64,000 nucleotides of DNA from Saprospira grandis (GTDB lineage: Bacteria > Bacteroidota > Bacteroidia > Chitinophagales > Saprospiraceae): NCBI RefSeq assembly GCF_027594745.1, contig NZ_CP110854.1:1372241-1436240 (forward strand), given 5' to 3'. A program made the translations under genes and the position numbers. This document shows positions 47,676 to 53,353 of this stretch, in pieces (position 1 is the stretch's first letter; every line of letters begins with the position of its first letter). A model generated the notes under the pieces. That model had not been told where the DNA came from. It saw nothing but the letters and a program-made list of their open reading frames with translations, and made no database searches.

Positions 47676-48380
47676 TTAAGCGAAAAAGAAAATATAGATA
47701 AAATAGAGTCCAGCCGCCAAAAAGAGCAAGCCCGTCAGTTTGCGGACATAGCGTTCTAGGGTTTGGATCTGCTTAAAATAGCGACTCATCTTATGGGCCG
47801 AAAAGGCCAGTAGGTAAGCAAAAAAGAGGACGGGCAGGGCGGTTCCGATAGAAAAGAGGAGGCCCATCAGCCAGGCTTGGGTTCCTTCTTGTAAGGCTAG
47901 GGGAACCAAGGCACCAAAGAAAAGGGCACCACTATAGGGACAAAAAGCCAGCGCGAAGAGAATGCCCAAGCCAAAGGCCCCACTATAGCCCTTAAAACCC
48001 AGTTTTTGTCCCCATTGGCCCAGGCCTGCTTGGCCCAATTTGGGCAGGGGGATCCAGCCCAGCATAAACAAGCCCAGCAAGAGTAAAACGGGGCCTAAAA
48101 AGCGTTCGCCCTTAGTTTGTAAGAAAAGCGCAAGCTCAAATTGGCTGGCGCCAAAGCCCAAAACCAATAAAATCAGCAAATAGACCAAGCTTCGGCCCAA
48201 GGTATAGGCCAAACCAGCCCAAAGCGTAGCTTTTGGTCCCTCTATAGATTTGGCAATATAAGCCGTGGCCGTAATATTGGTCGTCAGTGGGCAGGGACTA
48301 ATAGCGGTCAGTAGGCCCAAGGCAAAAGCGGCCAAGGCGGGTAATTCCTTAGTGTGGGCCAGGGTATCTAGAAAATCCAT
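47676..48380 (-). CDS. CcdA/DsbD-like (DsbD_2) thiol-disulfide transfer membrane protein
   Basis: The paired-Cys motif ISPCPL sits in the first TM helix. There are six TM helices. Confidence 0.55.
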   Translation of the reverse strand: MDFLDTLAHTKELPALAAFALGLLTAISPCPLTTNITATAYIAKSIEGPKATLWAGLAYTLGRSLVYLLILLVLGFGASQFELALFLQTKGERFLGPVLLLLGLFMLGWIPLPKLGQAGLGQWGQKLGFKGYSGAFGLGILFALAFCPYSGALFFGALVPLALQEGTQAWLMGLLFSIGTALPVLFFAYLLAFSAHKMSRYFKQIQTLERYVRKLTGLLFLAAGLYFIYIFFFA

Positions 48381-48869
48381 CTATTGAGCTAACTGATTAA
48401 GTGCATTTTCAATTTCGAGCTTGAGCTCATCCTCAAAATGGCTATCGTCTTTAGTGGCGCTACTAAAAGCAAAATCGGTAAGGTCCAGAATATGCTCGGT
48501 AGTAGGCGTAACGGTTTGCAAATAAAGGCCAGTGCCAGAAGCCTCAAACTTCTTGGCCAACTCATAATTATCGGCCTCTTCTACACTCATAAATTGATAG
48601 ACCAGCTTATGCTCTTGGAGTTCTTGGGCAAAATGTTCGGCCAAGACCTTTTTGGTCCTTGCCTCGATTGTATTACAAGTTTTGCAGCGACGCTTAGTAT
48701 AAGTTTCTAAGAGAAAAAGATGATAAGGAGGACGTTCGGCCTCTTCAACAGTGGGTGGAATAGCCGCTTGTACGGTTTGGGGAATTTCTGCGGGGGGCGT
48801 AGCCTCTCCACAGGCAGAAGCGAAAAGAACGATCAAAAAGAAGGGAATAGAGAGCGAAAGTAATTTCAT
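48381..48869 (-). CDS. Lipoprotein with CxxC motif (thioredoxin-like?), partner of the CcdA-like gene
   Basis: Lipobox LFASAC and the motif RCKTCN. The ORF as given in the track (to 48977) has a false N-terminal extension translated from a repeat element. The start was reset to MKLLSL. Confidence 0.4.
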   Translation of the reverse strand: MKLLSLSIPFFLIVLFASACGEATPPAEIPQTVQAAIPPTVEEAERPPYHLFLLETYTKRRCKTCNTIEARTKKVLAEHFAQELQEHKLVYQFMSVEEADNYELAKKFEASGTGLYLQTVTPTTEHILDLTDFAFSSATKDDSHFEDELKLEIENALNQLAQ

Positions 48870-48887
48870 AACGAGCAGTTTTCTTAG

Positions 48888-49012
48888 CGGCCTAGCGCTG
48901 CGGAGGGGGGGCGCGAAGCGCCAGACCAAGGCGGCTTGCCGCCGCAGGGCCGAGCAGACCTGCGAGCCCCGCAGCATAGCGCCGCAAGGCGAAGCCGCAG
49001 TGGAGGCCCCAA
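48888..49012. repeat. MITE-like half element (R orientation)
   Basis: GGCCTAGCGCTGCGGAGGGG...CCGCAGGGCCGAGCAGACCTGCGAGCCCCGCAGCATAGCGCC...GGAGGCCCCAAAA. Confidence 0.75.
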
Positions 49013-49019
49013 AAGATGA

Positions 49020-49997
49020 TTAAATTAAATAAGGGGCTACTGCATTAAATAGGAAGCCCAATAAAATAATGAGTAGGGCGACTAGGCTAAAAAAGAGGAC
49101 AATGAGTCGCCATTGCATGACCTTTTTAAGCAACATGGCCTCGGGAAAAGACAGGCCAATAGTGGCCATCATAAAGGCCATAGCCGTGCCCAAGGGAATA
49201 CCTTTTTGGATGAGTACCTCGAGTAAAGGCAAGATACCCGCAGCATTGTTGTAGAGTGGAATAGCGAGGACCGTAGCTAGAGGCACCGACCAAAAGCTGT
49301 TTTTGGGCAAATAGTTTTCGAGAAAACCCTCTGGTGTATAACCATGTAAAAAGGCGCCTAGGGCAATACCGACCAAAATATAGGGCAGCAACTTTTTGAG
49401 CGTGCCCAGAGCCTCTTGCCAAATAGCCAAAAAATTGGGTTTCCCAGCCTTAAACTGCTGTTGTTGAACCGCCTGAGTTTTGGCCAAAGCCTCTTGTAGC
49501 CAGGGGCTCAGCCAGCTATCTAGGCGAAACAAAGCAATGCTCCAACCCGCCAAAATGGCCAGCGTCATAGCGGCAAAAAGGTAGAAGAGCGTAAACTTCC
49601 AGCCCCAGGCCGCCAGAAAATAGGCCAAGGCAATTTCATTGACCAAAGGCGAGACAATCAGAAAAGTGAAGGTCAGGCCCAAGGGCAGGCCGCCACGCAA
49701 AAAGCCAATAAAAAGCGGGACCGAAGAGCAAGAGCAAAAAGGCGTAATGGCCCCTAAGAAAGCGGCAAAAACATAATCGAGGCCAAAAAGCTTATTCTTA
49801 CTCAAAAAGCTACGGATGCGGGCCGTGGGCAAATAATGATTGACCAAGCCCATCAGTTGCGTAATGAGCAAAAGCAGAATAATAATCTTGACGCTATCGT
49901 AGAGAAAAAAGTGTAGGGCCGCCCCAAATGGCGAATCGACCGAAAGGCCAATTAGACGAACAAAATAGGCCGCCCCATCTTCCAAAAACTGGAACAT
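49020..49997 (-). CDS. ArsP-type (DUF318) permease
   Basis: The conserved motif TPFCSCSSVPLF (TPFcSC) sits in a TM segment. There are eight or more TM helices. Confidence 0.6.
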   Translation of the reverse strand: MFQFLEDGAAYFVRLIGLSVDSPFGAALHFFLYDSVKIIILLLLITQLMGLVNHYLPTARIRSFLSKNKLFGLDYVFAAFLGAITPFCSCSSVPLFIGFLRGGLPLGLTFTFLIVSPLVNEIALAYFLAAWGWKFTLFYLFAAMTLAILAGWSIALFRLDSWLSPWLQEALAKTQAVQQQQFKAGKPNFLAIWQEALGTLKKLLPYILVGIALGAFLHGYTPEGFLENYLPKNSFWSVPLATVLAIPLYNNAAGILPLLEVLIQKGIPLGTAMAFMMATIGLSFPEAMLLKKVMQWRLIVLFFSLVALLIILLGFLFNAVAPYLI

Positions 49998-49998
49998 C

Positions 49999-51903: not shown

Positions 51904-51914
51904 AGATTTTCAAT

Positions 51915-52367
51915 TTAACAGCAGCCAGAGTTTGGTCCACAACAAGAAGATTTTTTCTCCTCCTCAAAGGAAATCCCACAAGCCTCTTTGGCCAAACAAT
52001 CTGTTTGCTTAGCATTCAGAATAAGCTGCCCAGAGGCGTTTAGGTCTAGCCAATAATACTCTAAACTCTGCGGTCCCTGATACTCTACAGCCAATTCTAA
52101 ATCCGCCAATTGCAGCTTTTCTTCTGCCAACTCAATGATTTTAAGCATTTTGCTAGGCGCCAAACGATGCTCTACATCATTATCCACCCAAAATTGTAGG
52201 ACCAACTCCTTTTGTTCTCGGAGCTGTCCACCACAATCCATAAATCTTTTTTGAACTTCTCCCAACTCAGTCAAATGAAAATGCGCGGGAATGGGCTGCC
52301 CGTCTTGTTGCAAAACAGTAAGGTCTTCAACTTGCCCCAAATAAGTTTTTAATGCTGATAGTTTCAT
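51915..52367 (-). CDS. Ars-operon Cys-rich protein with C-terminal SSCCGPNSGCC motif (candidate metalloid-binding/chaperone)
   Basis: Vicinal cysteine pairs at the extreme C-terminus. Sits between arsR and arsC. Confidence 0.4.
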   Translation of the reverse strand: MKLSALKTYLGQVEDLTVLQQDGQPIPAHFHLTELGEVQKRFMDCGGQLREQKELVLQFWVDNDVEHRLAPSKMLKIIELAEEKLQLADLELAVEYQGPQSLEYYWLDLNASGQLILNAKQTDCLAKEACGISFEEEKKSSCCGPNSGCC

Positions 52368-52459
52368 GATATCGTATTTTTACGATAGATTAGGTAAAAA
52401 GAAAAGGCCATTTCGGCCTAACAATCGTAAAAGTACGATAAGTAATTTAACTTTCTAGC

Positions 52460-52798
52460 TTAGCAGCAATTTTTATCAGAATTTAACAATTCTGGGCCTG
52501 CGATCAGTGGACCTAGGGTGTTTTGCAGCTTTTTCCAGCCTGCTTTATTGATACAATAATTACGGCGAACCCCCTCAATATTTCCTTGAATCAGGCCAGC
52601 TTCCTTCAGGGCCTTAAGGTGTTGGCTAACGGTAGCTTGGGCCAAGCCAAGCTCCTCCACCAAATCGCTAGTAATGCAAGCATTGGCAGAAATGAGGCGC
52701 TCTAGAATAGCGATTCTAGCGGGATGCGCTAATGCCTTAGCCAATTTGGCCATTTCGTTTTGCTCGCTACTAAAAAGCTCTGTTTTGCTGCTCGCCAT
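52460..52798 (-). CDS. arsR: ArsR-family metalloregulator
   Basis: LAHPARIAILERL...VSQHLKALKEAGLI HTH, a Cys residue in the alpha3 region (ACITS), and C-terminal CC. Confidence 0.8.
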   Translation of the reverse strand: MASSKTELFSSEQNEMAKLAKALAHPARIAILERLISANACITSDLVEELGLAQATVSQHLKALKEAGLIQGNIEGVRRNYCINKAGWKKLQNTLGPLIAGPELLNSDKNCC

Positions 52799-52801
52799 AA
52801 G

Positions 52802-53353
52802 TTATTTTTTAGATTTCTTTTCCTCTTCTTCCAAGAGTTCTTCTTGTTCTCGAATGTAGGCTTCAATCAATTTATCTAGAATTTGCCGCATAGGTTTTTT
52901 CTCCTGTCGGGCAATAGTTTTAAACTGATCAATTTTCTTACTATTGAGCACCACCGTAAGCCGTCTTGTTTTCTGCTTTGCTTTTCGGCTACCGTTAGTT
53001 TCTTGTTCTTCAGGGCTTTCCGGAATAGTTCGTCGGAGTAAAAGCTCTATCCCCACGGCTTTTTCGCCATCTTTATTTTGCACAACGCCCCTTTTCACTT
53101 CGGCCACCGAGGTGCCTTCTTTCCCAAAAGAGCTCTCAATACTTTCCTTAAAAAAGCTCTCTAGGTTATCGGCAAAAGATTTTCGGCTACTTTTACGTTT
53201 TTTGCCTGTTTTCTTTTTGCTTTTCGGGCTGCTTTTCTCCTCTTTTTCTACCGTCAAAACAGAGGGATTATCTTGGGCATTATCCTCATAGAGGGTGTGC
53301 TCAAACAATGATTCAAGGTCGGTAGAAAAGGATTTTTTATTTCGCTTAGCCAT
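52802..53353 (-). CDS. Lys-rich protein with C-terminal ribbon-helix-helix (CopG/ParG-like) DNA-binding domain
   Basis: C-terminal RLTVVLNSKKIDQFKTIARQEKKPMRQILDKLIEAYI has a beta-alpha-alpha RHH pattern. The N-terminal half is disordered and Lys-rich with an internal duplicate (KKSFSTDLESLFEHTL / RKSFADNLESFFKESI). Confidence 0.4.
   Translation of the reverse strand: MAKRNKKSFSTDLESLFEHTLYEDNAQDNPSVLTVEKEEKSSPKSKKKTGKKRKSSRKSFADNLESFFKESIESSFGKEGTSVAEVKRGVVQNKDGEKAVGIELLLRRTIPESPEEQETNGSRKAKQKTRRLTVVLNSKKIDQFKTIARQEKKPMRQILDKLIEAYIREQEELLEEEEKKSKK

Follow-up and report, generated by a model that had tools for sequence, protein, structure and literature searches.

Whether the nine open reading frames (ORFs) on the minus strand of the Saprospira grandis chromosome, at positions 47676-53353 of a 64-kb window (the whole stretch of 64,000 nucleotides analyzed here), constitute one unusual arsenic operon or an assembly of familiar modules is the question raised by this locus. 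An earlier note, made from the DNA letters alone, had described a single contiguous operon with unusual extra members, headed by a Lys-rich ribbon-helix-helix (RHH) protein. A check of the sequence found all nine ORFs where that note had placed them and every motif it had quoted, namely the SSCCGPNSGCC tail of a Cys-rich protein, TGCAKC, TPFCSC, and the CxxC motif (CKTC) of a lipoprotein-like ORF. Its family assignments to ArsR, LMW-PTP-type ArsC, ACR3, Thioredoxin_3, ArsP_1, and DsbD_2 were right, and these matches bear out an arsenic-resistance locus. However, the gaps between the genes, described as 0 to 50 bp, measure 3, 92, 11, 1, 65, 1, 150, and 0 bp from the RHH gene to arsG. A single uninterrupted nine-gene operon is unlikely because operator-like palindromes are present in both of the longer intergenic gaps before DUF6428 and arsE, together with a terminator-like hairpin in the 92-bp gap and a promoter-like site in the 65-bp gap. 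The region is very probably a composite arsenic-resistance locus, in which two known modules stand under an ArsR operator together with arsR itself, and the RHH gene, an adjacent TPR gene, and the repeats are neighbors. It is of a kind already known, an ordinary arsenic-resistance cluster with every gene except the RHH gene in a catalogued family. The second S. grandis strain, DSM 2844, has the identical gene order from TerC through arsG.

The first module comprises the genes for a Cys-rich DUF6428 protein (51915..52367, minus strand), ArsC (51331..51903, minus strand), and ACR3 (50301..51329, minus strand). ArsC is probably a divergent thioredoxin-coupled arsenate reductase of the LMW-PTP type, with an N-terminal extension of about 40 residues and an internal insertion. 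Over residues 41-182 it aligns with two solved structures, 8p5n (E 1.2e-10) and, end to end, B. subtilis ArsC (1jl3, E 1.4e-8), and Cys46, Cys134, and Cys141 line up with the three Cys residues of the thioredoxin-coupled enzyme. The acr3 product is an arsenite efflux transporter that passes the TIGR00832 equivalog model with 399.8 bits (cut-off 282.8). From what is established for the two families, ArsC would use thioredoxin to reduce arsenate, and ACR3 would expel arsenite. Gene neighbors were counted by tblastn with the window proteins in the best 80 loci with DUF6428; where the fetched comparison loci must be told apart they carry L-numbers (L001 and so on), L086 being DSM 2844. The neighbors of DUF6428 include arsR in 74 of these 80 loci, an arsC of the present type in 56, acr3 in 46, and arsE-arsP-arsF-arsG in 1, with arsR immediately upstream in nearly all of them. 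Elsewhere, the genes downstream of DUF6428 include those for ArsO (471 bits, above the cut-off), ArsN1-like acetyltransferases, MIP channels, and methyltransferases. Because of these neighbor counts and the other ars-type genes found downstream, arsR-DUF6428-arsC-acr3 is, as judged by gene content, the ordinary ars core of the Bacteroidota.

The regulator of this core is encoded by arsR (52460..52798, minus strand), whose product belongs to the ArsR/SmtB repressors (NF033788, 73.4 bits against a cut-off of 55; HTH_5, 48.9 bits) and to a subtype with a terminal vicinal Cys pair (Cys41, Cys82, Cys111, Cys112). Among the ArsR proteins encoded upstream of DUF6428, 67 of 68 end in CC, and Cys41, Cys82, Cys111, and Cys112 are conserved at approximately 100%. 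S. grandis ArsR is without Cys43 and Cys80, which 87% of its relatives possess. By this Cys pattern, the ArsR proteins of DUF6428-type operons form a distinct Bacteroidota subtype.

Three candidate ArsR operators lie in the two long gaps, and all three are found in DSM 2844 as well. In the 92-bp gap between arsR and DUF6428 (52368-52459), the order of elements is O1 (52424..52439), which reads ATCGTACTTTTACGAT on the minus strand and is an exact palindrome; a terminator-like hairpin (52405..52419, minus strand), AGGCCGAAATGGCCT followed by a T-run, which is weak evidence alone; and O2 (52371..52386), ATCGTAAAAATACGAT, followed by ATC and the ATG of DUF6428, which it precedes by 3 nt. The hairpin between O1 and O2 could end the arsR transcript. 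An RNA element in this gap was rejected as a candidate, since its fold (z -4.3) merely pairs the two palindromic operators, and Rfam gave no match in 47000-54500. In the 65-bp gap between acr3 and arsE (50236-50300), a promoter-like site on the minus strand, TTGATA-16-TATCAT (50263..50290), is followed by O3 (50239..50254), ATCGTAAAAATACAAT, which has one mismatch and stands 3 nt upstream of the arsE start (ACA-ATG). The promoter-like site is among the two best sigma-70-like sites of the region, with 10 of 12 matches, and is a consensus match alone. After arsG there is a further hairpin resembling an intrinsic terminator (47625..47648, minus strand), CTTGCGCC-N8-GGCGCAAG followed by a T-run.

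The palindrome ATCGTA-N4-TACGAT, allowing up to two mismatches, matches three times in the 64-kb window against 0.72 expected, and all three matches fall in ars intergenic gaps. With up to one mismatch, it is present in 31 of 80 other DUF6428 loci within 1.2 Mb of fetched sequence, and in every case it either precedes arsR by approximately 20-35 bp or closely follows arsR, before the ars gene that comes next. L048 has it ahead of a second arsR, which heads arsE-arsP-arsF-arsG. The palindrome is likely an ArsR operator because it forms a phylogenetic footprint at ars promoters in those 31 loci, and the candidate Bacteroidota operator ATCGTA-N4-T(A/G)CGAT obtained by this footprinting would be usable for predicting arsenic regulons. 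The operators, the promoter-like site, and the hairpins together suggest at least two ArsR-controlled units, DUF6428-arsC-acr3 and arsE-arsP-arsF-arsG, with arsR located upstream of the two gaps that hold the operators.

The organization put forward in the earlier note, with one nine-gene operon headed by the RHH protein as an extra ars regulator or component, is highly improbable. It would account for the 3-bp interval between the RHH stop and the arsR start, which is too short for a promoter and forms a junction conserved in both S. grandis strains, and RHH proteins are often transcriptional repressors. However, by tblastn the RHH gene is missing from 80 of 80 other DUF6428 ars loci, as is the TPR gene; no ars genes occur in the seven contexts of RHH homologues outside S. 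grandis; the window scan placed no ArsR operator palindrome ahead of the RHH gene; and the supposed operon contains internal operators, a hairpin, and a promoter-like site. The same 80 loci agree with the earlier remark that the RHH protein is not a usual ars component. They speak against its gene as the functional head of an ars operon, as do its homologues, which are found with TPR and ParA genes.

The RHH gene itself (52802..53353, minus strand) encodes a Lys-rich protein of 183 aa with a putative C-terminal ribbon-helix-helix domain resembling that of ParG. Profile searches returned no Pfam and no NCBIfam match for it. Its family includes 16 homologues besides the query, all of 167-201 aa and Saprospira/Aureispira-like. 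The internal duplicate already described (KKSFSTDLESLFEHTL / RKSFADNLESFFKESI) is conserved in 17 of 17 members, and the family alignment has three conserved N-terminal motifs, KKSFSxxLESLF, RKSFSxxLESFFKESI, and AIGIExLL, with a beta-helix-helix segment at the C-terminus. When the family profile was compared with all PDB sequences, the best match was ParG (1p94), a weak one (E 0.017) across the RHH domain. The AlphaFold2 (AF2) model places a strand at residues 129-137 and helices at 138-151 and 155-182, with a predicted local distance difference test score (pLDDT) of approximately 70 over residues 129-182 and 57 overall.

Upstream of the RHH gene, its conserved partner is a gene for a membrane/TPR protein (53893..54396, minus strand; Pfam TPR_2/TPR_6), which is not an ars gene. 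In six of the seven lineages that are informative, a TPR gene directly precedes the RHH homologue, and the window TPR protein has 53% identity to that of L001 and 37% identity to that of L002, both of which are encoded upstream of RHH homologues. A Soj/ParA-type ATPase gene stands just before the TPR gene in L002 and L094, and in L004/L005 the ATPase gene directly precedes the RHH gene. Thus a ParA-type ATPase accompanies the RHH homologue in L002, L004/L005, and L094, and not in this window, L001, L092, or L093; no ParA gene was found anywhere in the 64-kb window. The RHH protein is best read, from its sequence and gene contexts, as a ParG-like adaptor of TPR/ParA genes and not of ars genes. 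Its N-terminal motifs of the KKSFSxxLESLF type might be ParA-interacting peptides, and the three genes may represent a ParA-TPR-ParG-like positioning module specific to Saprospiraceae. The RHH-TPR(-ParA) contexts are located at 52802-54396 in the window, 6487-8546 in L002, 2594-4540 in L094, and 7174-8540 in L004, and no ParB gene was called beside the RHH-linked ATPase genes in these lineages. In the window, the TPR-RHH pair is closely preceded by two rhodanese genes (54400-55266).

The second module begins after the 65-bp gap and comprises four genes on the minus strand. arsE (49999..50235) encodes a small thioredoxin-like CxxC protein that matches Thioredoxin_3 and TIGR00412, the MTH895/ArsE family, with 96.7 bits against a cut-off of 62. 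The gene 1 bp downstream (49020..49997) encodes a permease of the ArsP_1 family (PF03773, full length, 212.3 bits against a cut-off of 32.3), for which no NCBIfam equivalog was matched at its cut-off. arsF (48381..48869) encodes a protein for export, with a CxxC motif, a signal peptide, and a candidate lipobox (86.1 bits for NF040494, the ArsF family, where the cut-off is 60), and arsG (47676..48380) a CcdA/DsbD-like membrane protein (DsbD_2; NF040495 equivalog, 263.2 bits against a cut-off of 200). A longer arsF ORF of 198 aa, starting at 48977, was rejected since its start runs through a repeat element; the protein truly begins with MKLLSL at 48869 and has 162 aa, as does the gene call in DSM 2844. 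ArsF is divergent, with only six word-sharing homologues, and their contexts conserve the order Trx_3, zero to two rhodanese genes, ArsP_1, ArsF, ArsG.

These genes had been counted among the unusual members of the operon, a description that does not hold: ArsE, ArsF, and ArsG exceed NCBIfam cut-offs, ArsP_1 is a Pfam family, and the cassette recurs in four other loci. In L048 it is headed by its own arsR, in L089 it follows an arsR and is succeeded by arsR-DUF6428-acr3, in L090 it follows an arsR and a methyltransferase gene, and in L091 it is set among sulfur-oxidation genes, with sulfur genes of the SQR-like, DsrC, and DsrE types. One or two rhodanese genes are located inside the cassette in L089 (3843-7121) and L090 (4298-7112). 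As cited in PMC9144182, ArsEFG, the origin of these three named families, is reported as a system for the detoxification of roxarsone and nitarsone (Chen, Zhang and Rosen 2019, Environ Sci Technol 53:6182). The NCBIfam models for ArsF and ArsG are likewise named for the detoxification and efflux of nitro-aromatic arsenicals.

An alternative for this module is a transmembrane thiol-disulfide relay, in which electrons would run from the cytoplasmic thioredoxin-like ArsE through the CcdA-like ArsG to the exported ArsF. The relay would supply either the ArsP_1 permease or thiol chemistry in the periplasm instead of combining a nitroreductase with an efflux pump, and it may not be strictly arsenic-specific. 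Such a relay would fit the matches of ArsG to DsbD_2/DsbD_TM with Cys residues in two membrane segments, the signal peptide and CxxC motif of ArsF, the CxxC motif of ArsE, the rhodanese genes inserted in L089 and L090, and the sulfur genes around the L091 cassette. It is nonetheless unlikely, given that ArsE, ArsF, and ArsG pass curated NCBIfam cut-offs, two of them under models named for nitro-aromatic arsenicals, and that the cassette carries a candidate ArsR operator both in S. grandis and in L048. The assignment of the cassette to organoarsenical detoxification is preferred here as a family-based reading, and from its recurrence the cassette is neither unusual nor exclusively linked to arsenic.

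DUF6428 is the member of the core module that gives this locus its remaining interest. The protein matches PF20001 over the full length of the profile (165.8 bits against a cut-off of 28.7; residues 3-150 on profile positions 1-155) and is encoded by a conserved accessory gene of Bacteroidota ars operons. The earlier note had compared its C-terminal Cys residues to those of the ArsD metallochaperone and had considered the rest of the protein unrelated to ArsD. The latter point agrees with the profile search, in which PF20001 was the sole match at E ≤ 0.01 and no ArsD match appeared, and a relationship to ArsD was rejected on this result together with the lack of any match to a PDB sequence. 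The search thus places the Cys-rich protein in an uncharacterized family, and hence in no unrelated characterized one; a literature search on DUF6428 and PF20001 returned nothing relevant. In a scan of one genome per species, DUF6428 was found in at least 592 genomes, nearly all from Bacteroidota, and the family forms 963 clusters at 50% identity, nearly all of stand-alone proteins of approximately 150 aa.

Many residues are invariant among close relatives of DUF6428. In divergent members (35-48% identity), H31, E34, D44-C45-G46, Q58, D64, H67, and C124 are still invariant, and conservation reaches at least 90% at T33, G47, R68, E95, and C130. The C..P.SGCC tail at the C-terminus is common and not universal. 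The predicted fold is well ordered (pLDDT 82.7), and comparison with solved structures, including any enzyme fold, gave no match. In cluster P0287, DUF6428 is fused to an LMW-PTP ArsC domain (140 bits and 51 bits in Pfam). Both ArsR (52460-52465) and DUF6428 (51915-51920) end in a vicinal Cys pair, and the same holds for most DUF6428 proteins. This shared ending hints at shared or exchanged arsenic-binding chemistry.

From these features, it may tentatively be proposed that DUF6428 is a previously unrecognized arsenic-handling protein at the core of the Bacteroidota ars operon, with a fold absent from solved structures, which binds As(III) through Cys45, Cys124, Cys130, and the Cys-rich tail and couples ArsC to ACR3. 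If so, it would be a functional analogue of ArsD of independent origin. A somewhat unlikely alternative is that DUF6428 is a metal-dependent enzyme transforming arsenicals, or a second regulator, in place of an As(III)-binding chaperone. The invariant H31, E34, D64, and H67 beside Cys residues resemble a catalytic metal site, the fold is well ordered, and DUF6428 adjoins arsR (74 of 80 loci) much as arsD adjoins arsR in arsRDABC operons. On the other hand, no similarity to enzyme folds or PDB sequences and no DNA-binding motif were detected, and three conserved Cys residues with a Cys-rich disordered tail are typical of As(III)-binding chemistry. The As(III)-binding proposal is kept as the working model for DUF6428.

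Taken as a composite of two modules, the locus would work as follows. arsR would probably be transcribed from the promoter of the RHH gene or from inside that gene, and its product would act at the two operator palindromes that precede DUF6428-arsC-acr3 and at the third, which, with the promoter-like site, precedes arsE-arsP-arsF-arsG. Arsenic bound to ArsR would free all three operators and turn both modules on. By their family functions, ArsC would then reduce arsenate with thioredoxin and ACR3 would export arsenite. DUF6428 would bind As(III) through its three conserved Cys residues (Cys45, Cys124, Cys130) and its flexible Cys-rich tail, and may act, in the manner of ArsD, to buffer arsenic or hand it over in concert with ArsC and ACR3. 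The four products of the second module belong to families tied to the detoxification and efflux of organoarsenicals.

Several observations weigh against this reading. ArsC scores below the profile cut-offs (40.7 against 174.3 for TIGR02691; 19.9 against 23.2 for LMWPc). The boundaries of the units are deduced from the operators, a promoter-like site, and hairpins; the hairpin and promoter scans yield consensus matches, and terminator-like sites in the region are not enriched over shuffled sequences. With an interval of only 3 bp between the RHH and arsR genes, the two probably share a transcript in S. grandis. In L091, the cassette stands without a called ars gene in the 8.3 kb seen, and therefore its arsenic specificity is not universal. 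Finally, As(III) binding is a candidate role for DUF6428, and the fusion with ArsC is a single cluster that could be a gene-calling artefact.

Repeat elements are inserted at two places in and beside the locus. One copy of a GC-rich, genome-wide repeat (48881..49014) occupies the arsP-arsF gap and is a Saprospira-specific insertion: this gap is approximately 150 bp here and in DSM 2844, where the repeat is present, compared with 10-45 bp in L048 and L089-L091, where it is absent. Two or more copies of a GC-rich repeat resembling repetitive extragenic palindromic (REP) or miniature inverted-repeat transposable elements (MITEs) fill the TPR-RHH gap (53436..53890; families D4, D6, D10, I3, I7, and I12; core at 53463-53475). 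The two MITE-like copies described in the earlier note do exist at 48881-49014 and 53436-53890, but they are not specific to the locus, as the 64-kb window holds 21 instances of the repeat core GGGCCGAGCRRAC, where 0.38 would be expected. Intergenic positions of the window harbor no fewer than 20 repeat families and fragments, and REP-like is a safer label for them than MITE. The repeat family is found in both orientations at approximately one copy per 3 kb, with examples at 1970-2294, 6845-7176, 24022-25166, 33481-33826, 41387-41522, 44437-44560, 60433-60550, and 62371-62529, and it gives rise to false GC-rich ORFs, 53551-53886 among them, as well as to the spurious N-terminal part of the longer ArsF reading frame. 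A structured RNA was considered for the arsP-arsF copy and rejected, since it folds no better than shuffled sequences (z -0.96).

Further observations concern the surroundings of the locus. Horizontal transfer was considered from base composition and rejected as a conclusion, as gene GC values are 0.40-0.50 against 0.477 for the window, and low GC at third codon positions (GC3) is confined to four genes (arsC, DUF6428, arsF, and the RHH gene), a pattern that is not conclusive. In DSM 2844, insertion sequence (IS) fragments with an rve integrase lie between arsG and a POT transporter gene (L086 13851-14831). These are absent from the window strain, in which the gap between arsG and the POT transporter gene is 272 bp. 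A tandem array at 58162-58380, with a 22-nt unit in approximately 10 copies (74% matches, consensus CCATCGAGAGGGGTACAGCTAC), forms a GC-rich stretch with short ORFs only, downstream of an MscS-like gene. Other tandem repeats are located at 44814-44905 (21-nt unit, 4.4 copies, 97% matches) and at 28176-28450 (83/41-nt units rich in TTTTCCAGCGAATG).

As an operon, the locus has little importance, its layout recurring across the Bacteroidota. What remains of interest is DUF6428, which is worth testing given its presence in at least 592 species, its position nearly always beside arsR, its invariant Cys/His core, its lack of a solved structural relative, and its one fusion to ArsC. The ParA-TPR-RHH module of Saprospiraceae is of side interest, with the RHH family hinting that in these bacteria a chromosomal ParA-type ATPase goes together with both a ParG-like RHH protein and a TPR protein of the membrane.

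Comparison with known systems places each part of the locus. A putative C-terminal RHH domain and a flexible basic N-terminal region liken the RHH protein to ParG of plasmid TP228, an RHH centromere-binding partner of a ParA-type ATPase, and some of its homologues are likewise encoded directly after ParA-type ATPase genes. However, ParG has 76 aa, whereas the S. grandis protein has 183 aa and is chromosomal, with no ParA gene in the window; in its family a membrane TPR gene usually lies between the ParA and RHH genes, and the match to ParG is weak (E 0.017). S. grandis resembles most of the 80 genomes with the Bacteroidota ars core in gene order and strand, and it has the CC-ending ArsR subtype and the operator palindrome of this core type. 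It differs in that arsR has no upstream operator and adjoins a foreign RHH gene; the two operators of the core are placed between arsR and DUF6428, and ArsR is without Cys43 and Cys80.

With the ArsEFG system, the S. grandis locus shares ArsE, ArsF, and ArsG proteins that all pass NCBIfam cut-offs. In contrast to that system, it has an ArsP_1 gene between arsE and arsF and a repeat between arsP and arsF. Like ArsD, DUF6428 is a small cytosolic protein encoded beside arsR and bearing vicinal Cys pairs, but it has no sequence relation to ArsD and no fold relation to any solved structure. The S. grandis locus has no arsA gene; therefore, any partner of DUF6428 would be ArsC or ACR3.

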